25,093 bases of DNA from Bacteroidia bacterium (GCA_026391215.1 JAPLDX010000132.1:1-25093); one strand, 5' to 3'. Positions 10,423 to 25,093 are shown, numbered from the stretch's first letter. Notes: generated from the letters alone by a model not told the origin. Numbers and translations are program-made.

Positions 10423-10449
10423 TCCGAAAGCATTTAAAGATGATTTATT

Positions 10450-11637
10450 ATGAATCGGGGCACTAAAGCTGCCTGTGTTCAAAATAGCAGGATACATATT
10501 GTAAGCGGTTTGAAGCTTGCAATGGTAAGGATTGGTGCAGTCCTGACCATTCTCATACTATCTCTAAAAATCAATCCAAATCCATTTAAAGCAGTCCGAT
10601 TGCTTCGTTCCTTAATCAGGGAAAGAGTTACCATCCATGGCAACGAAGGTGGAATAAAGGCTGTTAAAGCAGGCAAAAAATATTTTTGGAGCACAAATGT
10701 GCCGGGATGGCCTTCTGAGGCTTTCAATCATTTTATATATAATGAATTCCAGAGGATTCACTCTCCTCTTGAAAGCCATCTTCAGACGATATTTTTAGGT
10801 ATCACCAATGTTTGTCCATTAAACTGCATTCACTGCTTTGAATCAGAAAATTTGTCTGACAAAGACAATTTATCACTGGAGGAATTAGTGAATATTATGG
10901 AGAAAATTAACAATCATGGAATCAGACACATACATCTAAGCGGCGGAGAGCCCCTGAGCAGGTTTGATGATATGATCGAACTGTTGAGATTTTCCGGGAA
11001 CACCAAAGAATTCTGGATTAATACTTCGGGTTTCGGACTTACCAGGGAAAAAGCTTTTGTAATGAAGCAAAATGGGATCACCGGGGCCATTATTAGTCTT
11101 GATGATTGGGATGAAAAAAAGCATAATGCTTTCCGGAAAAATGACAAATCTTACTTCTGGGTGAAAGAAGCTGTCAGAAACTGCAACGAAGCAGGTATTA
11201 TTGTCTGCCTGGCATTATGCTGTATAAGGGAATTTGCAACAGAAGAAAATTTAGACCGGTATCTCCAGCTGGCTAAAGAAATGGGTGCCGTATTCGTCAG
11301 GATAATGGAGCCAGTTAAAGTCGGGAGGTTTTCCGGCAAGGATGTTCAGCTTGATCAATTCCAGATCGGTATAATTGACAGGTTTATGCTTTCCCGCAAT
11401 AGTGATCCGGCTTATGCCGGATATCCTATAATACAATTTCCTGGCCACCACCAGAGAAGATCAGGTTGTCAGGGTGCAGGCAACAGGTATCTTTACATTG
11501 ACTCAAATGGTCAGTTTCATTCATGCCCATTTTGCAGGAAACCTCTTGGAAATGCTTTAACAGAATCATTAGACTTCGGGATAGCACAGGCCAGAGCAGC
11601 CGGATGCCATTTATTCCAGCAAAGAACTTTAGCCTGA
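10450..11637 (+). CDS. Radical SAM protein with C-terminal SPASM/Twitch-like Cys motif
   Basis: ITNVCPLNCIHC (CxxxCxxC), LSGGEP, INTSG, ISLD. C-terminal GCQGAGNRYLYIDSNGQFHSCPFC...AGC. N-terminal extension of about 110 aa with a hydrophobic segment. Confidence 0.92.
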   Translation: MNRGTKAACVQNSRIHIVSGLKLAMVRIGAVLTILILSLKINPNPFKAVRLLRSLIRERVTIHGNEGGIKAVKAGKKYFWSTNVPGWPSEAFNHFIYNEFQRIHSPLESHLQTIFLGITNVCPLNCIHCFESENLSDKDNLSLEELVNIMEKINNHGIRHIHLSGGEPLSRFDDMIELLRFSGNTKEFWINTSGFGLTREKAFVMKQNGITGAIISLDDWDEKKHNAFRKNDKSYFWVKEAVRNCNEAGIIVCLALCCIREFATEENLDRYLQLAKEMGAVFVRIMEPVKVGRFSGKDVQLDQFQIGIIDRFMLSRNSDPAYAGYPIIQFPGHHQRRSGCQGAGNRYLYIDSNGQFHSCPFCRKPLGNALTESLDFGIAQARAAGCHLFQQRTLA

Positions 11638-11643
11638 CCGGAA

Positions 11644-12234
11644 ATGAAAATAATAAATATACCTCTTAATATACCTAATGTACTTTCCTTATACAGATTG
11701 TTCTCGTTCCCATTCGTAATGATCTTTATATTCCTGGGGCATGAGACTCTGTTTGCATTCTTTATATGGTTCAATCTCACAACGGATATTCTTGACGGGT
11801 GGATTGCCCGCCGGTTCAATCAAATGACCGAAATCGGTGAAAAGATAGACGGAATAGCTGATTCAGGAACATACATTCTTGCGCTTACGGGGATTTTTGT
11901 ATTTAAATGGACTGATTTTCAACCTCATGCTATATCATTTTTCATTTTTATCGGACTTTTTATTATTTCCCGGTTGCTTTCTCTTCTGAAATTCAGGGTT
12001 TATTTCGGTTACCATTCCGTACTTATTAAAATAGCCGGATATATTCATGGCGCTTTTTTTATTGTACTGTTCTTTTTGAATTTCTACATTTGGTTTTACT
12101 ATATTGTCATGATCAGTGGTTATATTGTATTTACGGAATCCATTCTGATAACGTTGATTTTAAAGGAACCAAGGTCGCATGTTAAAGGGTTCTTCTGGTT
12201 GCTTAAATCCAGGAAAGAGGTAAATCAGTCATGA
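11644..12234 (+). CDS. CDP-alcohol phosphatidyltransferase family protein (PgsA-like)
   Basis: NIPNVLSLYR and the signature DILDGWIARRFNQMTEIGEKIDGIAD (DxxDGxxAR-x8-GxxxDxxxD). Multiple TM helices. Confidence 0.93.
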   Translation: MKIINIPLNIPNVLSLYRLFSFPFVMIFIFLGHETLFAFFIWFNLTTDILDGWIARRFNQMTEIGEKIDGIADSGTYILALTGIFVFKWTDFQPHAISFFIFIGLFIISRLLSLLKFRVYFGYHSVLIKIAGYIHGAFFIVLFFLNFYIWFYYIVMISGYIVFTESILITLILKEPRSHVKGFFWLLKSRKEVNQS

Positions 12235-13646
12235 GCTTACTTTTAATTATATCAACAATCCACTTTTTAATAGGCGGGGTCAGCTTATTTCTTATTAACA
12301 AGAAACTATCTGTTGAAGAGCGGAGAAAAAACTGGTTGAAGTACATATTCTACCTGCTTATTTTTGTGGTTGTCCTGGCATCTGTCCTGGTAAATAAGAA
12401 CATTTTCCTTGGAGTCTCAATAATTATTTTTTCCATTTGTCTTTTAGAGATCCTGAAACTTAGTAAACTGCCATGCACTTATATTTTGCGTGATCGATTT
12501 GTTTTCATATCCATAATAATATTTTCAATCCTTGCACTGTTATTTTCAATTTTCATTCTTGTACCCTCAGTAATCATTGCCTATACCTATACTGTTGTCA
12601 TTATTTTTGATGGTGCAAGCCAGATATCAGGTCAGATCTTCGGTAAGAGAAAAATATTCCCGGCCATTAGTCCAAACAAAACATTTGAAGGATTAGCAGG
12701 CGGAATTTTAAGCGCAGTGATCACAGCTGTCATTTTACATGGTTTTGTCAGCTTTTCTGTAACTAAAGCTTTGATCTTCGGGCTGCTAATATGTGGTGTA
12801 TCGTTCACAGGAGATTTCGTATCATCGATTTACAAAAGAGCCTTTAGTATGAAAGATTTTGGGAATATAATTCCGGGTCAAGGAGGGATGATGGACAGGT
12901 TCGACAGCTTCATAACAAGTGGTGCTGTTGTAGGTTTAATAAGCATTTTTACATTTTTTTCATTCAGGGATGCTGACAGAAACATTGCCGTCTATCTTGG
13001 ATACTCCCTGACCTTTATATTAATACTCTTATCCGGTGAAATGCTTCAGCATATATTCAAGTTTAAGCCGGAATTTTCAAGAGCTTTTTCACATATGATA
13101 GCGGGAATAGCCAGCTTATTCATGATAAAGTTGTTTACATCTCCGTGGTATATCGTTTCTATCTGTATCCATTCGGCTATATTCATGTACATTTCAAAAA
13201 GAATCAGCATGTTTCATTCTCACCACGGAGTGGAAAGGACTACAAATGGAAGCCCATTGTTTTTCATGGGAATCTTAGCTGCCTTCTTAATCTCAGAAAT
13301 GCAAAAAAATACATCATTGTTTTATTTGCCGGTTACGATCCTGTCAATCAGTGATCCTGCTGCTTCATTGGCTGGATTAAAAAGCAAGTCGGGATTGTGG
13401 TCAGAATTATTTTCAGGTTTCAAAAGTTCAAAAACCTACCTGGGATCTCTTGTTTTTTTTATTTCAGCTTTTATAATCCTGATTGCAGGGATGGCTCTCT
13501 TTTACGAATTTACCTCATTAAAGCTTATTCCTTTAGCAATAATATCAGGGATAATTACAATTACAGAGCTCATTAGTCCCGGTGGGTCTGATAATCTCAC
13601 CATTCCCTTAGCAGCCTCTTTGACAATTGCCTTGCTAGTAGTGTAA
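12231..13646 (+). CDS. Fusion of phosphatidate cytidylyltransferase (CdsA) and a SEC59/DGK1/VTE5-family CTP-dependent lipid-alcohol kinase
   Basis: N-half: ISPNKTFEGLAGG and KRAFSMKDFGNIIPGQGGMMDRFDS (CdsA). C-half: SRAFSHMIAG, SISDPAASLAG, KTYLGSLVFF and ELISPGGSDNLTIPL (phytol/dolichol/DAG kinase family). ATGA overlap with the upstream gene. Confidence 0.88.
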   Translation: MSLLLIISTIHFLIGGVSLFLINKKLSVEERRKNWLKYIFYLLIFVVVLASVLVNKNIFLGVSIIIFSICLLEILKLSKLPCTYILRDRFVFISIIIFSILALLFSIFILVPSVIIAYTYTVVIIFDGASQISGQIFGKRKIFPAISPNKTFEGLAGGILSAVITAVILHGFVSFSVTKALIFGLLICGVSFTGDFVSSIYKRAFSMKDFGNIIPGQGGMMDRFDSFITSGAVVGLISIFTFFSFRDADRNIAVYLGYSLTFILILLSGEMLQHIFKFKPEFSRAFSHMIAGIASLFMIKLFTSPWYIVSICIHSAIFMYISKRISMFHSHHGVERTTNGSPLFFMGILAAFLISEMQKNTSLFYLPVTILSISDPAASLAGLKSKSGLWSELFSGFKSSKTYLGSLVFFISAFIILIAGMALFYEFTSLKLIPLAIISGIITITELISPGGSDNLTIPLAASLTIALLVV

Positions 13647-13654
13647 GTAACTGT

Positions 13655-15556
13655 CTAGTAAACAATTACATTTTTTCTCAAGCAGGAAGCTGGTTTAGGT
13701 GTGTTTTTTTTTAACATTGGCACAGTTATAGCTTCTGCAACTATTTCAGCGATATCGGCAACCTTTGTCTCTGTTGCTCCTGCAAGAATTTTCTTGCATA
13801 ACGGGCATGATGTTGCCAGAATGTCCGGATTTTCCCTGGTCAGCTCAGCAGCTGTATCACGGGCTATTTTATTCTTTTCCTGATAGCTGATCTTAATATT
13901 GCCAAGGCTCCCTCCGCAACAGAGAGATTTCTCATTTTCAAAATTCGTATTCTGCAGGCGGACAACATGCTTAAGGACTTCTTTGGGTTCATCGTAAACT
14001 CCAGAACCTCTTCCCAGATCACAGGGTGTATGGTATACGACTTTTTTCCTCAGGAAATTGAGTTTCAGTGAACCTTCCTCAATAAGCATATTAATGAACT
14101 GTGTATGATGAAGAACCTCAACATCAAGATAATAGCTTTCTTTAAATACCTTATAGCATATCGGACAGGAGGTCACAAGTGTATGGGCACCTGATTTCCA
14201 TATAAGCTGCGAGTTAAAATTAATTAATTCTCTTGCTTCCCTGTCCTGACCTGAAAGCATAAGAGGACGGCCGCAGCAGACACCACCGCCGGCATCCATG
14301 AAACTGTAATTTACCCCGGAAGCATCAAATATCCTGACCATTGAATTCCCGATAGCCGGTGTAAGATGAGTCATGCAGCCGGCAAAATAAAGAACATCAG
14401 TTTTTGCCGGTTCTTCCACAGGCAGAAATGAATATGATGTTTTCCCGTTAGTTTTCACCGGCATAATATCAAGCCTGTCAGGCAGATATTTCTTCCATAT
14501 GCTGGTTTGAACAGGTTCGGTCTCTCCTGCCCTTCTTCTTATCATCCTGATCGGCGTCAGCTCAATACCTACCGGGCATACCTGATCACACCGCCCGCAC
14601 ATGAGACAGTTGAAAGCAATATCGCTGACATTTTCATTGTTACGTATGCCTTTCAGAAGATAAGCCGATTGAATATTAGTTATGCCTGCCGAGAAATTAA
14701 GCTGGCATGCATCTATGCACATCCCGCATGATGAACATGAATATGTCTGTATTTCCGTGAAAGCGCCTGGCTGATCACCTGTTGTTATTCCTGAGTTCCT
14801 CGCAAATATCAGGAACAGCTCAGTTGGGATATGCATATACCTTGTAAGAGGAAGAAGGATAAAAAATGTACCAAGTGAAAGAGAATAGAGCCACCAGAAG
14901 GGATATGCCATCTGCTGTGCCGGAAGAAAGGATGCCAGGAGTGAGCCAAGAAATCCTGTAAGGAAGCTACCGGTGCCATAAGCACCACTGGTGAAGCTTT
15001 CAGCCAGAAGTCGGCTCGGAAAGATCAGCCATAAAGAAGTAAGAGCAACCTTGTCAAGCACTCTCAACCTGGTTGTCTTTTTCATTCCGACCACTTTTGA
15101 AGAAAACCTCTTGATCACTGCAATCAGCAGTCCTGATAAAATAAAAGCAAGCAGCAGATCCATCCAGAACGAATAGGCGGCTTCAAAGCCCGCCCTTCCG
15201 TGATCAGGATTAAAGAATTTGAAGAAAATAGCTTTATATGGAGCGTTCAGGTGTTTCTCACCGAAGATATCAGCTTCAATAGTACCGAACAGAATCAGCA
15301 GGAACCATCCGAAAGCCAGGCTCATATGCATAAAGCCAAGTCTGAAGTTAGATTTAAGTATCTTCCTGTGAATCAGGCTCTCCATAAAGATCTCCTTCAG
15401 GCTTTGTCCGAATGCTCTTCCGAAGAAGCCGCGCTGAAGCCGCAGCTTGTCAGGCCTCGAAAGGTTGCTGAACCAGCGCACGCTTCTCACTACTGCATAG
15501 ATGAGAATGAAGTACAGTCCGATATTAAATGGTATGACAAACGGATCAAACTGCAT
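13655..15556 (-). CDS. Membrane-anchored heterodisulfide-reductase-like protein (HdrF/HdrED-type): NarI-like TM domain, 2x[4Fe-4S], two CCG domains
   Basis: N-terminal TM helices with His in GFMHMSL and RYMHIP. Ferredoxin motifs CSSCGMCIDAC and CLMCGRCDQVCP. CCG domains FAGC..VCCG..TSCPIC and HTPC..LCCGG..TSCPLC. Confidence 0.88.
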   Translation of the reverse strand: MQFDPFVIPFNIGLYFILIYAVVRSVRWFSNLSRPDKLRLQRGFFGRAFGQSLKEIFMESLIHRKILKSNFRLGFMHMSLAFGWFLLILFGTIEADIFGEKHLNAPYKAIFFKFFNPDHGRAGFEAAYSFWMDLLLAFILSGLLIAVIKRFSSKVVGMKKTTRLRVLDKVALTSLWLIFPSRLLAESFTSGAYGTGSFLTGFLGSLLASFLPAQQMAYPFWWLYSLSLGTFFILLPLTRYMHIPTELFLIFARNSGITTGDQPGAFTEIQTYSCSSCGMCIDACQLNFSAGITNIQSAYLLKGIRNNENVSDIAFNCLMCGRCDQVCPVGIELTPIRMIRRRAGETEPVQTSIWKKYLPDRLDIMPVKTNGKTSYSFLPVEEPAKTDVLYFAGCMTHLTPAIGNSMVRIFDASGVNYSFMDAGGGVCCGRPLMLSGQDREARELINFNSQLIWKSGAHTLVTSCPICYKVFKESYYLDVEVLHHTQFINMLIEEGSLKLNFLRKKVVYHTPCDLGRGSGVYDEPKEVLKHVVRLQNTNFENEKSLCCGGSLGNIKISYQEKNKIARDTAAELTRENPDILATSCPLCKKILAGATETKVADIAEIVAEAITVPMLKKNTPKPASCLRKNVIVY

Positions 15557-15890
15557 TTTTCACTTTTTTATTAAAAGCTTCTCTTGCAAGCGTAACAACA
15601 TTACGTGTGTTCACACCCCGTGGGCATACCAGTATACATTTTCCACAGAGCATGCATTTCCCAATATTATCGCGGACAAGTTCATTCTCTCCCCGTTTCA
15701 AAAATATCTGGAGCTCCCTGAGGCTGAATCGTGTAAAATTACCAGTTGTACATGTTGCTGAACAGCATCCGCATTCAATACATACCCTGAAGCTTGGTTC
15801 ATGTTCGGCAATATATTCAGCAATGCTCCTGTCGTTGGCGTCATAGTCAATAATTCTGGCCTTCGAAATTGTAAAACCGAAATTGCTCAT
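15546..15890 (-). CDS. Small 4Fe-4S dicluster protein (HdrC-like)
   Basis: CIECGCCSATC and CMLCGKCILVCPRGV. Overlaps the downstream gene start by 11 bp. Confidence 0.9.
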   Translation of the reverse strand: MSNFGFTISKARIIDYDANDRSIAEYIAEHEPSFRVCIECGCCSATCTTGNFTRFSLRELQIFLKRGENELVRDNIGKCMLCGKCILVCPRGVNTRNVVTLAREAFNKKVKNAV

Positions 15891-15894
15891 CTTA

Positions 15895-16920
15895 TTAACT
15901 TCTGTTTTTAAAGTAATTCAATACATCCGAAACCGTTGCCCGTGCATGTGATATCGTTTCTGTAATATTCATAGGTGCAGTGCAGGTACCGGCATAAAAC
16001 ACCCCCGGTATATTACTGATATTACTTCCGAAATGGTTATCAGCTGAAGCAAAGAATCTGTTTTCCCCGGTTTCCAATCCTGCTGATTTTGCCAGGATTC
16101 TTCCACCTTCCGACATCTCCATACCTGCCATTAATACAAGCATATCGAGTTCCATTTTCAATGGGCGGCCTGCAAGAGTATCTTCGGCCTTAATTATCAG
16201 CTTCTTTCTTATTGATTCACTTACTTCGGATACTTTTCCTCTGATGAAGTTTATCCCCCATTCTTCCTGAGCTTCGCGATAAATTTCCTCGTAATGAGCT
16301 CCACCCATTCTCATATCCATATAAAAACAAAAAACTCTTGTTTCAGGAAGAAGTTCTCTAATTTCAATTGCTTGTTTTACAGCTGTTATACAACACAGCT
16401 TGGAGCAATACAGGTTACCCACCTTCTCATCACGAGAACCTACGCAATGTACAATACCCACATTCTCAGGTACCCTGCCATCGACTAATACAATCTTATC
16501 TTTTCTGAACATTTCTTCCAGATCAGATGATGTGATTACATTATCATAAATGCCATAACCATACTCTTCCTTTCTGGAACTTTTAAACAGATCAAATCCT
16601 GTTGCGACAACAACAGCATCTGCAGTCATTTCAGTACCTTCCCTGGTTTCAAGAGAAAAAATGCCATTTATATTTACTAATTTTTCTATTGTTGTTCCTG
16701 ATATGACCTTTATACCATCTTTATTTATAAGCTTGTCGAGATAGTCTTTTACCTCAGAGCTTCTTCTTCTGTCAGGGAAAAGCTTATACCAGCCATTAAG
16801 GTGTCCCCCTGTGTTTTCATCTTTCTCAACAAGACTTACATTAAAACCGGCGTTTGAAAGCTGTCCTGCAGCTTCCATCCCGGCCACACCAGCCCCGATA
16901 ACAACAATGTGCTTATTCAT
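15895..16920 (-). CDS. hdrA: Short HdrA-like FAD/Fe-S protein (341 aa, no ferredoxin insert)
   Basis: VIGAGVAG FAD motif, VVATGF, EYGYGIYDNVIT, HCVGSRD...YCSKLCC (HdrA cluster ligands), FYMDMR and GVFYAGTC. No CxxCxxC ferredoxin motifs. Confidence 0.88.
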   Translation of the reverse strand: MNKHIVVIGAGVAGMEAAGQLSNAGFNVSLVEKDENTGGHLNGWYKLFPDRRRSSEVKDYLDKLINKDGIKVISGTTIEKLVNINGIFSLETREGTEMTADAVVVATGFDLFKSSRKEEYGYGIYDNVITSSDLEEMFRKDKIVLVDGRVPENVGIVHCVGSRDEKVGNLYCSKLCCITAVKQAIEIRELLPETRVFCFYMDMRMGGAHYEEIYREAQEEWGINFIRGKVSEVSESIRKKLIIKAEDTLAGRPLKMELDMLVLMAGMEMSEGGRILAKSAGLETGENRFFASADNHFGSNISNIPGVFYAGTCTAPMNITETISHARATVSDVLNYFKNRS

Positions 16921-16926
16921 TAAATA

Positions 16927-17988
16927 TCAGATATTTAACAGACTGTGAGAATTTATTTTTGTCACTGTTCCGTTAATTTCATATTTCTTCTCCGGATCAT
17001 ATTCATATCCGATTTTTTCAAGCAATGGTTCACAATCGATCTGGTGCATCTGCAATCCCAGATCCCAGGGATCGTAACCCAGAACAAGCCCGGCTACCTC
17101 TTCGTATGTGAATACAGGAATACCCTCACCATTACAACCATATGTTTTGCCTTCCATTTCATTAATCACATACTGCCACCTGTCTAAAAACATAGGACAT
17201 CCAGGGCAGTTAGTGATAATCATATCGGGTTTATAGGGCTGCATTGATTCAAACTTCTGCTTCGAGCAGGCAATTGAAAAGCCCCTGTTAGCCTGTACCA
17301 GGTATTGTCTGAAGCCAAAACCACAGCAATGTCTCCGTTCGGGATAGTCAATGACTTGTCCTCCCCATTCTTCTATCATTCCTGCAAGAACATAAGGATA
17401 TTCTGCGCCACCGACACCCTTTAAAGGAAACATTTTAGAATAATGGCATCCTATATGATCCACAACTTTAAGAGGTTCACCGGTATTTTTATTTACTAAC
17501 TTATATTTAGCTTTTGCACCTATTTCTTTTCTGAATTTATATATGACATCACTTGCATGAGCCAGATTTTCAGGAATTTCAAATTCCCTCCCTGTGGCCT
17601 TTTTAAGCTGCTTCCTGACTTTACCCTCAACCTCCGGAAAATGGTGCCATGTTTCAAGGATTTCGGTATAAAGACCAAATGAAGTAATGCAGGAAGGGAC
17701 ATAGTTTTTATAACCTGCCTCAGTCATTAATGCAAACTGCCTTGCAACAACGGTCATCGCTGTCTCAACCGGAACAACGTCTCCATGATATCCAATGCCG
17801 GAACAGGTCGTATGACATGGATGTTCGTAGACATCCTTACCAAGCTCTTCCCTCATTATACGCAGAAAAGCAACCTCAGATCCGGGGAAGAAATTTTGCC
17901 TTATACAGCTTCTTACATAGAAGTATCTGTCATCAGCTATCTCTTTCTGATATTCACTCCATATAGCTCTTTTTCCTTCAATTTTCAT
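16927..17988 (-). CDS. hdrB: Heterodisulfide reductase subunit B-like CCG-domain protein
   Basis: Non-canonical first domain (RSCIRQ, TTCSG, SCITS). Canonical second domain (HIGCHY, HCCGFG, NCPGC). Ends with typical LVLGYDP...LGLQMH. Confidence 0.88.
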   Translation of the reverse strand: MKIEGKRAIWSEYQKEIADDRYFYVRSCIRQNFFPGSEVAFLRIMREELGKDVYEHPCHTTCSGIGYHGDVVPVETAMTVVARQFALMTEAGYKNYVPSCITSFGLYTEILETWHHFPEVEGKVRKQLKKATGREFEIPENLAHASDVIYKFRKEIGAKAKYKLVNKNTGEPLKVVDHIGCHYSKMFPLKGVGGAEYPYVLAGMIEEWGGQVIDYPERRHCCGFGFRQYLVQANRGFSIACSKQKFESMQPYKPDMIITNCPGCPMFLDRWQYVINEMEGKTYGCNGEGIPVFTYEEVAGLVLGYDPWDLGLQMHQIDCEPLLEKIGYEYDPEKKYEINGTVTKINSHSLLNI

Positions 17989-17993
17989 TCTGA

Positions 17994-18704
17994 TTATTGC
18001 TTTGTGTGCGACCCGTTATTGGTCTTGTAAATATGCCTGAAATACTCATTATCATTGGTTTCATCAAGTTGAAGGTTCAATTCCTCAGCCTTTTTCATTG
18101 AAGAAGACTCAATCTTTTCATATCGTTTTAGAGCTCCTGTCACTTCAAAAATCTTTTTTAGTTCATCAAGTGATTCTTGTGGAATTTTTCTTAAGATCCC
18201 AGGGCCAGATCCTTTATAATTTCCACCAAGCCGGTTTACAAGTTCTTTACGGTTTTCATAAACCCATTCCCAGTTTGGTCCCTGTTCAGGGTGAAGAGGA
18301 GGTGTAAGCATATCAATATAAACACAGTAACCGGTGCTGAGAATAGATTCCCCAACAGTTCTCTTAATAGCCAGTTGTTGTCTCCCCTTCTCTGATTCAA
18401 CAAAAAAACCAAGATCCTGTGATAATCCGCGTAATGCCATTATTACTAATCCTGGTGCATTACCTCGCGGACATCGTGTTTTACATGACATACATTCTCC
18501 ACAATACCATATTACTTCAGACTTAAGCAGTTTTTCAATTTCATCATTATCACCCGATTGAACAATATCCACAATTTGGCGTGGATCATAATTATAAAAC
18601 TCGGCTGCCGGGCAAATAGCAGTGCAAACGCCACAGTTCATGCAGGCATTCAGTCCCTCTTCAAACCTGATGTCCTGCATCAGCATTTCATAGTAATTTA
18701 CCAT
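17994..18704 (-). CDS. hdrC: Heterodisulfide reductase subunit C-like Fe-S protein with long C-terminal extension
   Basis: CMNCGVCTAICP and IWYCGECMSCKTRCPRG. First gene of the - strand operon. Confidence 0.88.
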   Translation of the reverse strand: MVNYYEMLMQDIRFEEGLNACMNCGVCTAICPAAEFYNYDPRQIVDIVQSGDNDEIEKLLKSEVIWYCGECMSCKTRCPRGNAPGLVIMALRGLSQDLGFFVESEKGRQQLAIKRTVGESILSTGYCVYIDMLTPPLHPEQGPNWEWVYENRKELVNRLGGNYKGSGPGILRKIPQESLDELKKIFEVTGALKRYEKIESSSMKKAEELNLQLDETNDNEYFRHIYKTNNGSHTKQ

Positions 18705-18722
18705 TTCAGGATCTTGACTTTG

Positions 18723-18740
18723 CTGTTAATTGATTAACAC
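18723..18740. promoter_or_regulatory. Rex-like operator palindrome upstream of the hdr-like operon
   Basis: cTGTTAATTGATTAACAc: perfect IR TGTTAAT/ATTAACA, 12/14 match to TTGTTAA-N4-TTAACAA. Abuts the -7 box on its downstream side. Confidence 0.65.
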
Positions 18741-18747
18741 AAAAGTA
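18740..18747 (-). promoter_or_regulatory. Bacteroidota -7 promoter element (TACTTTTG) of the hdr-like operon
   Basis: Reverse complement of CAAAAGTA matches TAnnTTTG, 35 nt upstream of the hdrC ATG. Confidence 0.6.
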
Positions 18748-18814
18748 TATTGTGTCCGCGAAACAGGTAAGACGATTAAAGCCTATTTTAGGTGTGGTAT
18801 TTATACTTAGAGAA

Positions 18815-18894
18815 AACGGTGCAACGGTACAACGGTACAACGGTGCGACAGTGCAACGGGTCAGCGGTGCGACTGTGCAATGATGCAATGGTAA
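18815..18894. repeat. Tandem array of ten degenerate 8-bp units (consensus AACGGTGC)
   Basis: AACGGTGC AACGGTAC AACGGTAC AACGGTGC GACAGTGC AACGGGTC AGCGGTGC GACTGTGC AATGATGC AATGGTAA. Confidence 0.9.
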
Positions 18895-18900
18895 ATGGTT

Positions 18901-19509
18901 TTAAGGGCAATTGCAGGGTTTGTATTTCCTCCTGCCGTTCAGCTTTTCGTTGATCTTGTAAGTCAGGAAGGCCGAACCGGCACCAATAAGCGCTCCTGCA
19001 AGCACATCCGAGGGATAATGAACACCAACCTCCATTCTGGAATATGCAACTGTCCCGGCCCATGCAAAAGAGGGAACGATTACATACCATTCAGGATATG
19101 CCAGGCTTAAAGATGTGGCCGTTTCAAATGCAGATGAGGTATGTCCCGATGGGAAGGACGGACTTATAACATCCATTTTTTTCATAATATCGGGATAGGT
19201 TTCATATGGGCGGTCACGGTTAACAGTATATTTCAGTGCCGCGCTGATTCCAAAACTGAATGCAGTGCCCACTGCTATCACACAGGCATTTCTCACCATT
19301 TCTTTATCATCTTTTATAAGTCCTGCCGTTACAATGCCAGCAGGCACACCAATGACAACATAAGCCTCTGACCGCGACATGAACCTGAAGAAATTGTCTG
19401 CCGGAAGAACTTCCGGAGAATTTATTGACCTTAACAACCGGATGTCAATATTCTGAGAATAGAGACCTATCGATGTAAATAATGATATTATCAGAAAAAT
19501 AGCCTTCAT
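18901..19509 (-). CDS. PAP2 family phosphatase
   Basis: All three PAP2 motifs present: KYTVNRDRP, PSGH and SRMEVGVHYPSD. N-terminal signal peptide and TM helices. Confidence 0.93.
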   Translation of the reverse strand: MKAIFLIISLFTSIGLYSQNIDIRLLRSINSPEVLPADNFFRFMSRSEAYVVIGVPAGIVTAGLIKDDKEMVRNACVIAVGTAFSFGISAALKYTVNRDRPYETYPDIMKKMDVISPSFPSGHTSSAFETATSLSLAYPEWYVIVPSFAWAGTVAYSRMEVGVHYPSDVLAGALIGAGSAFLTYKINEKLNGRRKYKPCNCP

Positions 19510-19521
19510 AATTTATTGTCC

Positions 19522-19618
19522 TGCAAGTCATTCAAGTCATGCAAGTCGTGCAAATCATGCAGGCCTTTTCCCCTTGAGAGACTTGCACGACTGCAAGACC
19601 GGCAAGACTGGCAAGACC
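19522..19618. repeat. 9-bp tandem/inverted repeat cluster (consensus TGCAAGTCA / GGCAAGACC)
   Basis: Five units at 19522-19566 (TGCAAGTCA TTCAAGTCA TGCAAGTCG TGCAAATCA TGCAGGCCT), an inverted unit GACTTGCACGAC at 19580-19591, then TGCAAGACC GGCAAGACT GGCAAGACC at 19592-19618. Confidence 0.85.
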
Positions 19619-20050
19619 TTATTTCAGTTTGGTCTTGATATCAATCAGTTTCTTTATAGTTACAACATCAGACTGATCCGCCATTTTCGTTGTTATTGCC
19701 CTGATCTTGCCATAATGCTTGCCACCTGTAAAATCATCCTTTACAGATTTTGGTATATCGCTGGCAAGTATTACAGGTTCTGCTTTATCTCCAAAATAGA
19801 AAGTCACCCTGAAAGTATCCTTCATCACAGCCAGCCAGAAGATTGTCTTCTTTTTCAGGACCATTTTAAAAAGCCATTGCTTCCCGTCATTATAATAATT
19901 CCAGCTGCCCAAAGAATCCTTATAATTTTCTGACATATAATCCATTATACTTTTCCACAGAGCCTTCTTAATTCCGATAATTGAAAATATGTACTCATCT
20001 GTTGGTTCGACCTGCTTGTCGGATAAAACATAAACTTCTTTTTCTGCCAT
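19619..20050 (-). CDS. DUF3788 family protein
   Basis: 143-aa ORF with WNYYNDGKQWLFK..KKKTIFWL...FRVTFYFG pattern and C-terminal KLIDIK. Confidence 0.75.
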   Translation of the reverse strand: MAEKEVYVLSDKQVEPTDEYIFSIIGIKKALWKSIMDYMSENYKDSLGSWNYYNDGKQWLFKMVLKKKTIFWLAVMKDTFRVTFYFGDKAEPVILASDIPKSVKDDFTGGKHYGKIRAITTKMADQSDVVTIKKLIDIKTKLK

Positions 20051-20100
20051 AATTTAATATTTTCTCAATTTTTCTGAAACACCTGAAAAAGTCTTTTTTT

Positions 20101-20176
20101 CCCACCCCTAAATCCCCCAAGGGGGACTTTCAGATATCCAGATAGTCATAATGCCCCCCCTGGGGGGTTGGGGGGT
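20101..20176. repeat. Second REP-like G/C-tract element
   Basis: CCCACCCCTAAATCCCCCAAGGGGGACT (20101-20128) faces CCCCCCCTGGGGGGTTGGGGGGT (20154-20176). Same architecture as 3954-4049. Confidence 0.8.
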
Positions 20177-21039
20177 ACAATATTTTTATTCGTTTCCTTC
20201 AATGAAGTAACGCTTCCAAACCTCCAGGCTTTAAGAAGTGTTTTAATATAAAACAGAATTTGTGTTGTAATAAAGAGAAGGAAAACACCTCCTCCTGTAA
20301 CAGGTGTCCATGATCTGATAACGAGAATGACCAGCGCTCCGAAAAGAAGCTGAATCACCATGAGTATCAGCATCATCGGGAAAGACGATGCGAAATGACC
20401 GAATGTTTCACTGAATCCAAATCCCAGGGCTTTAAAGAATGCAGGCTTTTCAGAGGATACCAGCCAGGCCCTTGCATAATCGGCAACAAGCAGAAAAATA
20501 ACTTCTGCCATGGAAAATACCAGCACAGCAATGATCCCTATGATGAAGGTCATCGGACCGGGTGTTCCCGACTGCAATGTTAATCCAACAGGAAGACCAA
20601 CAATAAGGAATGCAAAGAAAATAATCATGAAAATGATCATGAAATATAAGCCAAGAAAATACCAGAAATACCTGGCCGAAGCCCTGAAAAAGCACGGAAC
20701 TGAGATTATATCTTTTGAACCTTTTATGCTTTGGAAAAGACCTCCGGCAAAAAATGTGTTTAGAAGTATACCCAGGAAGATCACAAAGAAAAATCCTGAG
20801 AAGAAGTATGAAGCCAGGCTTGCCAGATACGGGCCAAGGTCACTTATCACTTCAATATCCAATCCGTCCCGCAACCTTTCAGTTATCATGCTGCTTCCGA
20901 ACCCTGTTCTCATTGTACCTTTCATCGGGATTACAAATACTGATATAAGTATCAGAGAGAAGAACCAGATTATTAGTACACCCTTCCATGATCTTAATGA
21001 CCGCAGGGCACCTGATGACAAAGATTTAAAAATCTTCAT
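20146..21039 (-). CDS. Hypothetical polytopic membrane protein
   Basis: 297 aa with about 6 hydrophobic helices. Starts 11 bp after the M1 peptidase stop codon. Confidence 0.85.
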   Translation of the reverse strand: MKIFKSLSSGALRSLRSWKGVLIIWFFSLILISVFVIPMKGTMRTGFGSSMITERLRDGLDIEVISDLGPYLASLASYFFSGFFFVIFLGILLNTFFAGGLFQSIKGSKDIISVPCFFRASARYFWYFLGLYFMIIFMIIFFAFLIVGLPVGLTLQSGTPGPMTFIIGIIAVLVFSMAEVIFLLVADYARAWLVSSEKPAFFKALGFGFSETFGHFASSFPMMLILMVIQLLFGALVILVIRSWTPVTGGGVFLLFITTQILFYIKTLLKAWRFGSVTSLKETNKNIVPPNPPGGAL

Positions 21040-21050
21040 AACGTCTTAAT

Positions 21051-23018
21051 TTACAGTGTTATAGCACTAATATATAATTGCATCAGAAAAATTAACTTGT
21101 CGGCAAAGCGACGAATGAGTACACGGTCAGGATCTTCAGTTCTGGAGTTATTAATGAAGTTCACATCCATCCTGTTTTTATATTCCGGATCTATCTTAAC
21201 CCATTCTATCTTTCCGTGTCCCAGGTATGTGAAATCCTTATAACGGGCTTTCCCATCCCAGTTTTCAAGGATCTCATCGCCATTCTTAAAATGAACCAGA
21301 ACATCCACAGGGAGCATGACCTCTCCAAGCCTTTCCATCTGGACAACCGCTTTATAGAGTGAATCATTCAAGGGAAGACCTTTGGAGAGTGAATCGTTCT
21401 CCTGCATTTTCTTTTCAGAAGGAAGCTTCTTATTTATAAGGTTTGACACCCTGTAATCACATATACCGGTGCCATAAAGTGTCTCGTCAAAAAACCAGTT
21501 CATATCTGCTCCGAACTTATCTCCATAAGTCTTTGTAACGACTTCATTGACAACATTAACAAAGTCTTTTCCCGAAGGATGCCTGAATGCCCATTTTCTG
21601 TAATATTCCCTGAAAACTTCATTTGTCGTTTTCTCGCCGATAACTCCCATTAATGAGTAAAGCCATGTCGCAGCTTTATTATACGACATCATTCCATAGG
21701 TTCCGTGCGGATAATTCCAGGAATACTCATTATTACTGACCACCTGCCTGTTGTCAGATTTGGTATAGGTTAATCTTGAATAGGCTTTATCAGGTATTTT
21801 TAGGTAACGATAGTCCATCAATCCTGAGTTTTCTCCATAGTAGTGATCCATGATCCTTGCCTCCCAGAATGAATTAATTCCCTCATCCATCCATGGCTCC
21901 TCAAATTCATTGGATGCCAGAATCCCCATAAAATAAGCATGTCCGAATTCGTGGACGGTAACCATTTCACCCATATGCATCCATTCAGGCATTCGGTCAG
22001 CCGACATTGAAGTAAACAGGGTTGTATATTCCATTCCGCTGGCCCCCGATCCTATAGTCGGCGGATCAACAAAAGTGAGGTGCGGCCATGGGAAAGGACC
22101 AACGTTTTTTGTCAGGTATTCGAGAGCATTTTTTACTGCAGTAAATTGCCTGTCAACCTGTTTAACCCTTGCTTCAGGTAAAAGAAGCGTTATACTGACA
22201 TGTTCCCACTTATCAGTAAATACCTTATATCCCGGCCATGCTGTCCATGCAAAATCAACTATATCCTCCGCCCTCAGGGTCAGTGTCTTCAAATTGCTGT
22301 CAGCAACAGATTCATTTATAAGCATCCCTCCGGAACCCACAACATATCTCTCTGGTAAGGTGATCTTGACATCATAAACACTATGGTTGGCATAGAATTC
22401 GGAGTTCACATGGAACTGATGGCAGTTCCATCCGCTTTGAGATCTCTGCCGCATTCCGGAAGGCTCATATACTCCGAATTTGGGAAACCACTGGGCTACA
22501 AAAAAGTATTCGCCGGAAAAGCCTGTTCTCCTGATCCTTGACGGCAGCTTTGTCTCAAAATCCACATTGATAAAGACCGTATCGCCGGGTCTGGCAGGTT
22601 TTGGAAGAATCACCTGAAGAACGGTGCTGTCAGCAGAATTGGCATCATCGGGATGGATATAATGAATCAATGGCATCAGGTCGGTTCCATTCCCGTCAGT
22701 GAAGGAGCTTATGTTTATCCACCCAAGGTCCAAATCCTTTTTGCCTGGTGATCCTCCTGATTCTTTATACAGTGTTGAATTTCTGCTCCTGAAAGCATTC
22801 ATATACATATGAAGCTGGATATCAGGCACTGTCCCGGATGACGTATTTACCCAGAAGGCTTTCATTGTTCCGGAAACGGTCTTCGCTGCAGTATCGAGTT
22901 TTACGTCAATGTTATAGCCGGTGATCCTTGGACTCAGGGGTTCCTTGTTAATGATCTGGGAATGAAGGGAACCGGCAAAAGTCAATAATACGACAAATGG
23001 CATTACCTTTTTTTTCAT
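21051..23018 (-). CDS. M1 family metallopeptidase (secreted)
   Basis: Signal peptide, AQWFPK, GASGMEY (GAMEN-like) and VHEFGH-x18-E (WMDEG) zinc motif. Catalytic Tyr region SYNKAA. Confidence 0.93.
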   Translation of the reverse strand: MKKKVMPFVVLLTFAGSLHSQIINKEPLSPRITGYNIDVKLDTAAKTVSGTMKAFWVNTSSGTVPDIQLHMYMNAFRSRNSTLYKESGGSPGKKDLDLGWINISSFTDGNGTDLMPLIHYIHPDDANSADSTVLQVILPKPARPGDTVFINVDFETKLPSRIRRTGFSGEYFFVAQWFPKFGVYEPSGMRQRSQSGWNCHQFHVNSEFYANHSVYDVKITLPERYVVGSGGMLINESVADSNLKTLTLRAEDIVDFAWTAWPGYKVFTDKWEHVSITLLLPEARVKQVDRQFTAVKNALEYLTKNVGPFPWPHLTFVDPPTIGSGASGMEYTTLFTSMSADRMPEWMHMGEMVTVHEFGHAYFMGILASNEFEEPWMDEGINSFWEARIMDHYYGENSGLMDYRYLKIPDKAYSRLTYTKSDNRQVVSNNEYSWNYPHGTYGMMSYNKAATWLYSLMGVIGEKTTNEVFREYYRKWAFRHPSGKDFVNVVNEVVTKTYGDKFGADMNWFFDETLYGTGICDYRVSNLINKKLPSEKKMQENDSLSKGLPLNDSLYKAVVQMERLGEVMLPVDVLVHFKNGDEILENWDGKARYKDFTYLGHGKIEWVKIDPEYKNRMDVNFINNSRTEDPDRVLIRRFADKLIFLMQLYISAITL

Positions 23019-23045
23019 CTGAGTAAATGATTTATGACTATCCTG

Positions 23046-23435
23046 CTATTGATTTTCCACTGGTTCTTTTATCAGCGTCAGAGGGATAACTCCTTCACTA
23101 AAGACAGCATTACCGGTCATTGTTGAATTGTCGTTCATCTTAAGATTAACCGATACACTATCAGTTTCAATCCAGATATAGAAATGGATAGAATCATTTT
23201 GAATCTTTACTTTTTCACCCGTAAGGGTATAATCCATATTTGTCAATGAAATTAATGCAGTGTATTTCCCCTCAGCTGACAAAAAATCTATTGCCCCCGA
23301 AGTATAGCCTTCAGGAGCATATGGCGCATCAAATTTCCATTGGCCAACAGGATCTTTTTTCTCAATTACTGGTTGTGCCAGACCGGTCGAGGAAAAGAAA
23401 ACAAGAAGCATGATGAAAGGAAAAATCTTTTTCAT
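23046..23435 (-). CDS. Hypothetical secreted protein (probable start at 23435, MKKIFPF; ORF extends to 23465)
   Basis: Classical signal peptide MKKIFPFIMLLVFFSSTGLA-Q followed by a DPVGQWKF beta-rich domain. Confidence 0.75.
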   Translation of the reverse strand: MKKIFPFIMLLVFFSSTGLAQPVIEKKDPVGQWKFDAPYAPEGYTSGAIDFLSAEGKYTALISLTNMDYTLTGEKVKIQNDSIHFYIWIETDSVSVNLKMNDNSTMTGNAVFSEGVIPLTLIKEPVENQ

Positions 23436-23587
23436 ATATGATAATTTTAAATTAGAGAGATCCATTTAGTTCCGAAGGCTGAATTTACTTGATTTTTTTT
23501 ATCTGACCCGTTTTTTCTGAAAATGTATTAAAAACATCATAATTATCATATATTTAGTTTGAAAGGTGAACAAAATATACTTTTACA

Positions 23588-23605
23588 TTGTTAATTAAAT
23601 AACAA
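23588..23605. promoter_or_regulatory. Rex-like operator upstream of sqr
   Basis: TTGTTAATTAAATAACAA, 13/14 match to TTGTTAA-N4-TTAACAA. Preceded by a -7-like TACTTTTA (23578-23585) and 16 nt upstream of the ATG. Confidence 0.65.
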
Positions 23606-23621
23606 TAGATTAGAATTAAAC

Positions 23622-24854
23622 ATGAAAAATCTTGTAATTATCGGAGGAGGAACAGCCGGGACTACGATGGCAAACAAACTGGTAAAGTATCTCCCTGCGA
23701 ACAGATGGAAAATAACGATCATCGAAAGGGCAAAAGAACATTTTTATCAGCCCGGCTTTCTTTTTATCCCCTTTGGTTACTATAACAGGGATCAAATAGC
23801 AAAACCAACAAAGAAATTCTTTCCAAAAGGAATTGATGTCATCAATAATGAGGTAGATCGGATCGAGCCTGATAAAAACCTGGTAAATCTAAAAGATGGA
23901 AATTCAATTACTTATGATGTTCTTCTCATCGCAACAGGTACAAGAATAACCCCTGAGGATACACCTGGTCTTAAAGGTGAATTATGGCATAAGAATGTTT
24001 TTGATTTCTATACTATTGAAGGCGCTGAAGCTCTTGCAGGCTTTTTCAAAACCTGGGAAGGCGGCGACCTGGTGATCAACATAGCCGATAATCCTATAAA
24101 ATGTCCTGTAGCTCCTCTTGAATTTAGCTTTTATGCTGATGAATTTTTCCAAAAAAGAGGTATAAGGGACAAGGTAAAGATAACTTATGTAACCCCGATG
24201 TCAGGAGCTTTCACAAAACCGAAAGCCTCAAAATTTCTAGGATCTCTCATGGAGAGGAAGAATATTATTATTGTCACCGATTTTTTCCTTGGAGAAGTCG
24301 ATAATACAAATAAAAAGATCCTCGATTTTGGAGGCCGTGAGGTTCCATTTGACTGTCTGGTTACTATACCCCTTCATTCAGGAGATCCTGTAATCTCAAA
24401 AAGTGGATTGGGTGATGAATTTGGATTTGTAAAAGCCAATAAAAACACACTGCAATCCCTCAATTACCAGAATATTTTTGTAATTGGTGATGCATCAAAT
24501 CTTCCGACATCTAAAGCCGGATCAGTAGCTCATTTCCAGGCAGATATCCTTCATGAGAATATCCTGAGCTTTATTAATAATGAATCTTTAAAAGCTTCAT
24601 TTGACGGACATTCAAATTGTTATATTGAAACAGGTTATGGAAAAGGGATCCTGATTGATTTTAATTATGAAACAGAACCCTTGCCGGGAATGTTCCCATT
24701 ACCAGGTATTGGTCCTTTCACATTATTGAAAGAGAGTCGAATAAATCATTTGGGGAAACTGTTTTTTAAATGGATGTACTGGAATCTCCTCCTGCGAGGA
24801 AGATGGATTCCTATACCATCTAAAATGTCTATGAAAGGTAAGATTTCAGACTAA
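23622..24854 (+). CDS. sqr: Sulfide:quinone oxidoreductase (type III-like) flavoprotein
   Basis: IIGGGTAG, HFYQPGFLF, IKCPVAPLEF and FDGHSNCYIETG (the two active-site Cys), GDA..LP.SKAGS. Amphipathic C-terminus HLGKLFFKWMYWN. Confidence 0.88.
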   Translation: MKNLVIIGGGTAGTTMANKLVKYLPANRWKITIIERAKEHFYQPGFLFIPFGYYNRDQIAKPTKKFFPKGIDVINNEVDRIEPDKNLVNLKDGNSITYDVLLIATGTRITPEDTPGLKGELWHKNVFDFYTIEGAEALAGFFKTWEGGDLVINIADNPIKCPVAPLEFSFYADEFFQKRGIRDKVKITYVTPMSGAFTKPKASKFLGSLMERKNIIIVTDFFLGEVDNTNKKILDFGGREVPFDCLVTIPLHSGDPVISKSGLGDEFGFVKANKNTLQSLNYQNIFVIGDASNLPTSKAGSVAHFQADILHENILSFINNESLKASFDGHSNCYIETGYGKGILIDFNYETEPLPGMFPLPGIGPFTLLKESRINHLGKLFFKWMYWNLLLRGRWIPIPSKMSMKGKISD

Positions 24855-24890
24855 TATATTTATAATCAATAACTTAATAATCTCAATATT

Positions 24891-25093
24891 ATGGCACAAA
24901 AAATTTATGCAGGCGTCACAGTGGATGTCAACGAGGAGGGTTATTTTACCAGTCCCTCACAATGGACCAAAGAAATAGCCGTGGAAATTGCAAAGGAAGA
25001 AGGTATCACCCTTACAGATCAGCATTTTGCTATTATGGATTTTCTCCGTACCAAATTCCTCAGTGGTGAATTACTCTCAATAAGGAGCATAAA
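24891..25093 (+). CDS. TusE/DsrC/DsvC family sulfur relay protein (3' end outside window; not in the ORF track)
   Basis: Own translation: MAQKIYAGVTVDVNEEGYFTSPSQWTKEIAVEIAKEEGITLTDQHFAIMDFLRTKF... This matches the family N-terminus (D/N-x-EGY/F...W...A..IA..EGI.LT..H...+.++R). The C-terminal Cys residues are not visible. Confidence 0.88.
   Translation, partial: MAQKIYAGVTVDVNEEGYFTSPSQWTKEIAVEIAKEEGITLTDQHFAIMDFLRTKFLSGELLSIRSI

Follow-up and report, generated by a model that had tools for sequence, protein, structure and literature searches.

In peat, fens, sediments and guts, Bacteroidales rank among the leading fermenters. The contig studied here (Bacteroidia bacterium, GCA_026391215.1 JAPLDX010000132.1:1-25093), analysed over its whole stretch of 25,093 nt and hereafter called the window, belongs to an uncultured anaerobic Bacteroidales bacterium. 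It carries a five-gene operon related to the heterodisulfide reductases (Hdr) and, divergent from it, a sulfide:quinone reductase gene (sqr) followed by a gene of the TusE/DsrC family. The question raised by this locus is which electrons such an operon would move, and whether the two units belong to one sulfur system. The operon may encode a membrane-bound, menaquinone-linked Hdr-type (per)sulfide/disulfide oxidoreductase complex, probably acting as an electron sink, a reading that is preferred with somewhat less than even confidence. The arrangement is new in that an sHdr-like core is joined directly to an HdrDE/EMO-like quinone module and in that a Rex-type operator is shared with a sulfide-handling operon. 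It suggests that such bacteria have an as yet undescribed means of balancing their electrons by way of sulfur. No description of the Bacteroidales operon was found in the literature, the coverage of which did not extend to supplementary tables that possibly list such proteins.

The operon and its soluble subunits

Five minus-strand open reading frames (ORF), called in the window, occupy positions 13655-18704 and are separated by gaps of 4-6 nt or by an 11-nt overlap. Their order of transcription is HdrC-like, HdrB-like (CCG), HdrA-like, ferredoxin and 633-aa membrane protein. The ORF and the family scores confirm what a preliminary description of this DNA had proposed, namely a five-gene hdr-like operon with a divergent sqr-tusE pair about 5 kb off. 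On the Hdr-family NCBIfam models, all the window proteins score far under the equivalog cut-offs and, therefore, none of the Hdr proteins is the orthologue of a named enzyme.

Conservation was assessed by a genome scan seeded with HdrB1, which gave 304 candidate loci. The best 80 of the 304 were retained and are the relatives referred to throughout, and ORF were called in the scans from 70 aa upwards only. The identity of HdrA divides the retained loci into a close clade (clade A, n = 46) and a distant clade (n = 32). The five genes keep the same order in 74 of the 80 loci; three others end at a contig edge, and L051, L060 and L072 are without some of the genes.

The cofactor motifs of the soluble subunits are strictly conserved. 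The eight cluster cysteines of HdrC1 are invariant among 64 aligned sequences, as are the eight cysteines of the small ferredoxin among 57. HdrB1 contains a classical C-terminal five-Cys CCG motif (C181, C221, C222, C261, C264) and a non-classical N-terminal set (C28, C62, C100), both invariant in 80 sequences. Residues 3-335 of HdrA align end-to-end with residues 2-338 of sHdrA from Hyphomicrobium denitrificans (PDB 6TJR; 206 bits), whereas only the central part aligns with the methanogen HdrA chains of 640-670 aa. Its Fe-S motif (C159, C172, C176, C177) is invariant in 71 sequences. No evidence of an NAD(P)H site was found in this short HdrA, where the known cofactor signatures are the FAD motif and the Fe-S motif only, and the link to NAD(H) that had been suggested earlier is not supported. 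Judged by sequence, the soluble core formed by HdrC1, HdrB1 and the short HdrA resembles the sHdr core of sulfur oxidisers.

The membrane subunit

The protein encoded by the last gene of the operon has hydrophobic stretches within residues 1-250; it also contains a dicluster motif and a pair of CCG domains. Its structure model (pLDDT 86, pTM 0.81) has a predicted helical N-terminal membrane region of about residues 1-255. Over the whole length, the best fold match in the PDB is 9OJN, the EtfD of M. smegmatis (E 7e-19, TMq 0.63, about 16% identity in the fold alignment). A profile match to the EtfD/EMO family reaches 1.3e-33, and HdrB chains match the fold of the C-terminal part. The EtfD-like fold supports the quinone-linked membrane anchor of the preliminary description.

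EtfD has five membrane helices, with a heme b held by His78 and His241 beside a menaquinone site, and four clusters, two of them cubane and two in the CCG domains (PMC13083937). The same build is shared by the Syntrophus EMO and by HdrDE, the membrane domain being NarI-like (10.64898/2026.08.18.745454). In the present subunit, H63, H77, H242 and all 18 cluster cysteines are conserved in the relatives, the three histidines being invariant. H77 is placed in the second membrane helix and H242 in the last, with numbers near those of the EtfD heme ligands; a PDB search with the membrane domain alone, as a single sequence, gave no match. An equivalence of Arg305 with Arg306 of EtfD, suggested by numbering, was dropped, the Fe-S motifs being offset by 27 residues.

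In EtfD, Thr539 and His583 give rise to a linear [3Fe-4S] cluster and a closed, non-catalytic cluster (PMC13083937). Both CC..CxxC motifs of the present subunit are complete, with all ten motif cysteines conserved, and in the profile alignment the positions of Thr539 and His583 are taken by Cys428 and Ile466. Because of these replacements, the non-cubane clusters look like the catalytic Hdr type and not like the shielded type of EtfD. The membrane subunit is thus assigned, from sequence and model, to the EtfD/EMO/HdrDE type, with a predicted heme b domain, two cubane motifs and two complete non-cubane motifs. Its nearest known relatives are EtfD, EMO and HdrDE, rather than DsrMK.

Promoters and the shared operator

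The two divergent units share their promoter build. An identical 11-mer is found in both upstream regions (18741-18751 for hdr and 23574-23584 for sqr), and it contains a match to the Bacteroidetes -7 box, TAnnTTTG. Next to it stands the palindrome TGTTA-N6-TAACA, which occurs exactly twice in the window (18724-18739 and 23589-23604), once at each promoter; 0.04 occurrences are expected and none of 100 shuffles gave two. In its 18-bp form, TTGTTAA-N4-TTAACAA, the two promoter sites are the sole matches of the window at up to two mismatches. The operator begins at the end of the -7 box or a few bases from it and ends about 10-30 nt 5' of the start codon. It lies over the transcription start, which is the position of a repressor.

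The operator was counted as the best site within 90 nt before the start codon, with a threshold of at least 10 of the 14 consensus positions. By this measure the site is kept by 39 of the 46 hdr promoters (45 of them from related loci, one from the window) and by all 11 sqr promoters; these come from the close relatives and the window, and the conserved core, 6-N4-6, reads TGTTAA and TTAACA. In the loci, 1.31 Mb in total, exact matches number 6, against 0 in shuffles, those with one mismatch 10, against 0.5, and those with two mismatches 49, against 13.9; 15 of the 16 matches with at most one mismatch sit at an hdr or sqr promoter. In L005 an operator stands at the contig edge, at the expected place of sqr. 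The hdr loci of the distant clade have no operator. The likeness of the two promoters, already remarked in the preliminary description, is confirmed and is a conserved functional feature. A reading of the palindrome as an RNA hairpin was rejected, as the sequence itself is conserved and one-sided changes break the pairing; Rfam gave no match for the palindrome or for the hdr upstream element.

Further upstream, the hdr promoter has a conserved element, TATAAATACC-N6-8-AAATAGG with the next bases, present once per locus at a constant place in the window and 35 close relatives. It is preceded by a tandem-repeat array, and the relatives have arrays of differing 7-9 nt units at the same spot. Together they may represent an activator site with a spacer array. 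The sqr promoter has a direct-repeat element, CATCATAAWTATCATA, about 25-30 nt upstream of its -7 box, in the window and in the sqr upstream regions of L001-L037. Since this element differs from that of hdr, the promoters have the operator in common and not the upstream sites. A 100-aa ORF on the minus strand (18788-19090) overlaps the end of the PAP2 gene and spans the tandem repeats; it matches no family and is probably no gene.

Candidate regulator

Rex is an NADH/NAD+-sensing repressor of fermentation and respiration genes, and the genes it represses usually re-oxidise NADH. The consensus of the shared operator is identical, letter for letter, to the Rex box TTGTTAANNNNTTAACAA used for clostridia, which is quoted in section 2.13 of PMC5367854 from Ravcheev et al. 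2012. The match suggests control by NADH/NAD+ rather than by a sulfur-specific switch. Of the co-regulated sulfur system put forward earlier, the shared operator stands. The dedication to sulfur is less secure, since an operator that equals a Rex box may reflect a global redox regulon.

An FNR-like gene of the Crp/Fnr type lies divergent from sqr in two relatives (L012:5229-5930 and L026:2400-2954), the L026 copy appearing frameshifted at its 3' end. The protein has an N-terminal CxxCx4C motif (three cysteines) and a fourth cysteine in the sensor domain, and its own promoter contains a perfect TGTGAT-N4-ATCACA about 42 nt upstream of the likely start. This site has inner bases unlike those of the shared operator and has no occurrence in the window, and the FNR-like protein is probably separate from the regulator of the operator.

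The sqr operon and its sulfur carriers

The SQR of the window scores 619.4 bits on NF049943 (type III SQR, selenoprotein subtype; cut-off 525). Its HSNC motif at residues 330-333, ending in C333, occupies the position of the HxxU motif of the selenoprotein subtype (PMC13188914, table) and is conserved in 10 relatives. Selenocysteine was considered and rejected. The sqr frames of L001 (1924-3156) and L030 (708-1940) have one in-frame stop each, at non-conserved positions elsewhere than the Cys position, which indicates a pseudogene or an assembly error.

DsrC is defined by a C-terminal arm with two cysteines that form a disulfide or trisulfide. On TIGR03342 (TusE/DsrC/DsvC family, cut-off 53.5) the homologue of L002 scores 77.6 bits and the window fragment, being partial, 41.7. 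The C-terminus of the window protein is therefore judged through relatives 72-85% identical to it. These have 103 aa and end in SC[IV], and the penultimate cysteine, sought as the mark of a sulfur carrier, is present as the sole cysteine in 8 of 8 full-length proteins. Such a TusE should be able to hold a persulfide but not a DsrC-type two-Cys disulfide or trisulfide. With a single C-terminal cysteine the DsrC-type mechanism is excluded, and the analogy with DsrMK/DsrC drawn in the preliminary description is not supported, the more so as the DsrK model reaches 66.7 bits against a cut-off of 400.

In the relatives the operon runs sqr, tusE and then a 165-aa DsrE2-like gene (9-10 relatives), with a DUF1641 gene inserted between sqr and tusE in L002. 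The DsrE2-like protein matches PF13686 and has two invariant cysteines; on NF047629 it scores 94 bits, under the cut-off of 210. The expectation of further sulfur-relay genes is thus answered in part, by the DsrE2-like gene after tusE and by rhodanese genes in some relatives, with no TusA. Three more genes stand 3' of dsrE in L018 (L018:2-4696), L019 and L031, on the same strand and closely spaced, for a SufS-like class-V aminotransferase, an ETF-QO/FixC-like protein and a fused EtfBA; they may form a single long operon with sqr. The same three genes are present in L045, with no sqr nearby.

Distribution and gene neighbourhood

The membrane subunit has at least 120 cluster representatives at 77-96% identity, which come from Bacteroidetes, Bacteroidales or Bacteroidia metagenome-assembled genomes (MAG) where the organism is given. 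The names of the closest 120 of these clusters are generic only, such as "Fe-S oxidoreductase". Further out there are about two dozen full-length clusters at 40-50% identity, followed by others at about 35% or less. The distant clade includes gut, rumen, termite-gut and Prolixibacteraceae MAG. One locus, L033, is labelled Chloroflexota; its operon has 72-85% protein identity to Bacteroidales and nests in the close clade, so that it is probably mis-binned.

In the window, hdr and sqr are divergent and 4.9 kb apart, with five unrelated minus-strand genes between them (PAP2, DUF3788, a 297-aa membrane protein, an M1 peptidase and a 139-aa protein). Linkage was counted within a radius of 10 kb in loci with at least 8 kb of upstream sequence, 30 in the close clade and 20 in the distant one. 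A divergent sqr-tusE pair lies within 10 kb upstream in 10 close loci, which makes 9 of the 30 counted and none of the 20 distant ones; an obligatory linkage of hdr and sqr is not supported. The gap between hdrC1 and sqr varies from 1.4 to 7.1 kb across loci and the intervening genes vary, the shortest being the 1.4 kb of L002 with different genes between.

At the place equivalent to that of sqr, L008, L010 and L034 (L034:15-5235) have genes for a PhsA/PsrA-like molybdoenzyme, a 4Fe-4S protein, an NrfD-type protein, two YeeE halves and a rhodanese. Only part of this set is present in L011 and L013, and five more loci have rhodanese and/or YeeE only. Sulfur genes are found upstream in 18 of the 30 close loci (9 sqr-tusE, 5 phs/psr-like, 3 rhodanese/YeeE and 1 dsrE), and 12 have none. 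On a tree of HdrB1, HdrA and the membrane subunit (76 rows, LG+G4, quick search), the history of each module type takes 6 changes, of which well-supported branches force 4 or more, and neither type is clustered beyond what shuffling of the labels gives (132 and 118 of 500 shuffles). The spot upstream of hdr is a place of turnover for sulfur genes, apparently more than a single inherited accident, with the reservation that related species are non-independent.

The neighbours were also scanned against Pfam, with a reach of up to 10 kb on each side (140 clade-A and 103 distant-clade proteins; one clade-A round took only unclustered ORF of at least 95 aa, the conserved clusters entering through a single representative each). 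LbpA/GcvH-like proteins, lipoate ligase or synthase, TusA, DsrAB, MvhD and Flx-like proteins were found neither in the window nor among these 140 and 103 proteins. No dsrJOP genes were found in any locus, and no sulfite-handling genes were seen in the scanned neighbourhoods. In none of the 80 loci does the operon include an ETF gene; the only ETF genes found are those that lie past dsrE in L018, L019 and L031 and those of L045.

Other neighbours recur around the operon. Upstream of hdrC1, and on its strand, 11 loci have a GPx gene (e.g. L034:8557-9042), which is the direct neighbour in 7 and stands behind PAP2 in others, and AhpC/TSA genes lie upstream of the hdr promoter in L017 (1272-2528, directly) and L042 (8044-8532). 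Just beyond the membrane subunit, 34 related loci have a 183-aa gene, which in a few of them is set off by no more than a single small ORF. In the window this gene is separated from the operon by four plus-strand genes at 8707-13646, encoding a 571-aa protein of unknown type, a radical SAM protein, a CDP-alcohol phosphatidyltransferase and a 471-aa CTP_transf_1 protein, which look like a lipid-synthesis insertion.

Table 1. Features of the window, with positions counted from its first nucleotide
Feature	Position	Strand	Basis or remark
Fused membrane subunit gene, 633 aa	13655..15556	-	motifs, model, fold match
Small ferredoxin gene, 114 aa, two [4Fe-4S] motifs, HdrC N-terminal domain-like	15546..15890	-	family scores
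Short hdrA-like flavoprotein gene, 341 aa, N-terminal FAD motif and HdrA-type Fe-S motif	15895..16920	-	sHdrA alignment
hdrB1-like gene, 353 aa, CCG protein	16927..17988	-	matches HdrB models
hdrC1-like gene, first of operon, 236 aa, two cubane [4Fe-4S] motifs	17994..18704	-	HdrC models 64-88 bits, under cut-offs
Palindromic operator, hdr promoter; Rex-box match, 2 mismatches	18723..18740	.	abuts -7 box 18740-18747 (minus)
Conserved upstream element of hdr promoter, ~45 nt	18766..18812	-	about 40 nt upstream of -7 box
Tandem-repeat array, 8-nt unit, about 10 copies	18815..18892	.	upstream of conserved hdr element
Conserved direct-repeat element upstream of sqr promoter	23535..23550	+	by eye, window and 10 related regions
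Palindromic operator, sqr promoter; Rex-box match, 1 mismatch	23588..23605	.	begins 3 nt after -7-like box 23578-23585
Type III sulfide:quinone reductase gene (sqr), 410 aa, Cys form	23622..24854	+	NCBIfam NF049943
TusE/DsrC-family gene, 5' part (67 codons), interrupted by window end	24891..25093	+	TIGR03342, 41.7 bits as a fragment

Proposed function and alternatives

The gene content, the cofactor motifs, the fold of the membrane subunit, the conserved operator of both units and the fuller sqr operon of the relatives are observed. That the five proteins make up one complex is inferred from HdrABC, sHdr and EMO, and the regulator, substrate and direction are likewise proposals. At its HdrB-type sites the complex would process a cytoplasmic thiol/disulfide or persulfide couple and exchange the electrons of that couple with the menaquinone pool. 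The path between HdrB1 and menaquinone would lead, in either direction, through HdrC1, the HdrA flavin, the small ferredoxin and then the cubane, non-cubane and heme cofactors of the membrane subunit. Under a Rex-type repressor, the hdr and sqr-tusE-dsrE2-like units would be switched on when NADH accumulates. SQR and the carriers, one-Cys TusE and the DsrE2-like protein, would handle sulfane sulfur, and the Hdr complex would turn it over against menaquinol/menaquinone. Protein-bound sulfane sulfur would be the best substrate candidate because SQR, TusE and the DsrE2-like protein are co-regulated in this lineage.

The direction favoured is reductive, with sulfane sulfur converted to H2S and the reaction serving as an electron sink. 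Bacteroidetes bins from anoxic water are reported to contain genes for thiosulfate and polysulfide reductases (PMC7887784), which argues for this direction. It is also favoured because a Rex-type repressor would release the genes as NADH piles up, because sister species hold the thiosulfate/polysulfide-reductase set at the same place, and because the accessories of sHdr oxidation were not found in the scanned neighbours. A more specific form of the proposal, for which the confidence is low, makes the operon a third sHdr-like type, with the HdrC1-B1-A core plugged into an HdrDE/EMO-like module for the Rex-controlled respiration of persulfide or sulfane sulfur bound to TusE/DsrE.

Several points weigh against the proposed sulfur-linked complex. 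SQR is known as a sulfide oxidiser, and the reduction of sulfane sulfur by menaquinol is uphill at standard potentials. Of the counted loci, 21 of the 30 close and all 20 distant ones lack an sqr inside the 10-kb radius. The neighbours scanned in the distant clade are heterogeneous, and none of these 103 proteins belongs to a sulfur relay; with the operator also missing there, the general function of the complex cannot depend on sqr-tusE. Scans of ORF and Pfam families at the scale of the loci gave no Rex-like ORF in the window or the related loci, and no literature was found on Rex in Bacteroidota. A global regulator would, moreover, bind together unrelated redox genes. In EtfD/EMO the non-cubane clusters merely relay electrons (PMC13083937; 10.64898/2026.08.18.745454) and, consequently, a thiol substrate is not required.

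In the main rival, which is less probable, the operon is a general redox module that connects some cytoplasmic donor or acceptor with menaquinone, has no sulfur substrate and uses its non-cubane clusters as wires. The operator would be shared with sqr through a broad Rex-type regulon, and the proximity would be inherited gene order. The autonomy of an operon that is complete in most loci, the lack of conserved neighbours in the distant clade, the absence of sqr near most loci, the global nature of the Rex box, the unrelated housekeeping genes in between and the non-catalytic clusters of EMO/EtfD (same sources) all agree with such a module. It accounts poorly, however, for two five-Cys motifs of the Hdr type without the shielding His of EtfD, and for HdrB1, an extra HdrB-type subunit needless in an electron wire, in an operon with no ETF-like donor. 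Nor does inherited order readily explain that two kinds of sulfur module recur and turn over in place in the 18 close loci, or that sqr of L002 stands so near hdrC1 behind different genes.

The remaining alternatives keep a thiol or sulfur substrate. A compact sHdr-type sulfur oxidation is improbable. In it, SQR would make sulfane sulfur, TusE and the DsrE2-like protein would deliver it and HdrB1 would oxidise it towards sulfite, the EMO-like subunit passing electrons to menaquinone and on to fumarate reductase or an oxidase, as in a type II sHdr that skips EtfAB. The C1-B1-A order, the short HdrA like that of 6TJR, the oxidative direction known for SQR and the EtfBA, ETF-QO-like and SufS-like genes after dsrE in L018, L019 and L031 speak for it. 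So does the published type II system, which reaches menaquinone through a fused HdrC-HdrB protein, EtfAB and EMO, and the rule that DsrE, TusA or rhodanese proteins always accompany sHdr systems (PMC11094781). On the other hand, the lipoate-linked and TusA accessories are missing among the 140 clade-A neighbours, no sulfite-handling genes were seen and the hosts are anaerobic, fermenter-type Bacteroidales MAG. Derepression by a Rex-type protein at high NADH also fits poorly with extra reductant entering the quinone pool, and the sHdr surveys, in the text covered, name phyla other than Bacteroidota. A support of thiol peroxidases, in which menaquinol would reduce a thiol carrier for the GPx or AhpC/TSA encoded upstream, has very little probability: it draws on the GPx genes of 11 loci and the AhpC/TSA genes of L017 and L042, but no peroxidase gene occurs at this place in the window, none neighbours the operon in the distant clade and the conserved promoter separates these genes from the operon. 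Hardly credible, finally, is a module of the DsrMK kind whose substrate, a DsrC-type disulfide or trisulfide, would be reduced on the TusE/DsrC protein. It is suggested by a NarI-like membrane domain and CCG domains near a DsrC-family gene, and it is contradicted by the Cys pattern of all full-length TusE relatives, by the low DsrK score and by the lack of dsrAB and dsrJOP in any locus.

If the preferred reading is true, and menaquinone is linked to thiol or persulfide chemistry, these bacteria have an unaccounted redox-balancing route, together with an unaccounted turnover of sulfide and sulfane sulfur in places where sulfur cycling competes with methane formation. The third sHdr-like type, if true, would be a hidden sulfur-based electron sink for fermentative Bacteroidales of wetlands and guts, with a role in cryptic sulfur cycling. 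The conserved operator provides a directly testable handle on when the complex is produced.

Comparison with known systems

The preferred reading, if true, also adds a missing arrangement to the family of Hdr, sHdr, EMO and HdrDE modules. The bifurcating HdrABC of methanogens has a full HdrA of about 650 aa with ferredoxin and MvhD-binding domains, unlike the 341-aa protein encoded here. With DsrMK(JOP)/DsrC the operon shares a NarI-like domain with a CCG protein and a DsrC-family gene in the neighbourhood; it differs in the DsrK score, the one-Cys TusE and the absence of DsrAB/DsrJOP. The operator is like those of the Rex regulons of anaerobes, being an 18-bp palindrome with the same half-sites and spacing over the transcription start. 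An hdr-like operon and sqr are, however, non-classical targets, and in the literature searched neither a Rex gene nor a Rex regulon is reported for Bacteroidota.

EtfD/EMO and the present subunit are alike in uniting in one chain a NarI-like membrane part with a domain for two cubane clusters and another for the non-cubane clusters, in the conserved His pair of the membrane domain and in the whole-length fold match to 9OJN. The EtfD/EMO structures have five transmembrane helices. Both five-Cys motifs are intact here, whereas EtfD has a Thr at the second Cys and a cluster-closing His, and the operon has HdrCBA-like genes in the place of an ETF partner gene. The HdrDE of Methanosarcina, which couples a membrane carrier to disulfide reduction, is similar in its cytochrome b part, its HdrC-HdrB fusion and its catalytic-type non-cubane motifs (10.64898/2026.08.18.745454). 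In the present operon the two parts are fused in one chain and an HdrCBA-like core is added, and the carrier would be menaquinone, not methanophenazine, in a bacterial host without CoM or CoB.

The type II sHdr system consists of sHdrC1, B1 and A with a fused HdrC-HdrB protein (sHdrB3), said to bind one non-cubane cluster, and of EtfAB and EMO leading to menaquinone (PMC11094781). Differences from it are an operon without etfAB, the absence of lbpA, lipoate-assembly and tusA genes within 10 kb, TusE in the place of TusA, anaerobic Bacteroidales as hosts and a membrane protein whose gene belongs to the operon and in which both non-cubane motifs are complete. The second arm of sHdr, which is hyp-hdrC2-hdrB2 in type I and hdrB3 with etfAB and emo in type II, is replaced here by the 114-aa ferredoxin and the membrane-fused HdrC-HdrB. 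The likeness extends to the hdrC1-hdrB1-hdrA order, the short HdrA of about 340 aa as in 6TJR, an Fe-S protein of the fused HdrC-HdrB type and a membrane protein of the EMO type through which menaquinone is reached. Sulfur transferases of the DsrE and rhodanese families lie near the operon in some of the relatives, with no TusA. Taken together, the operon resembles a condensed type II sHdr.

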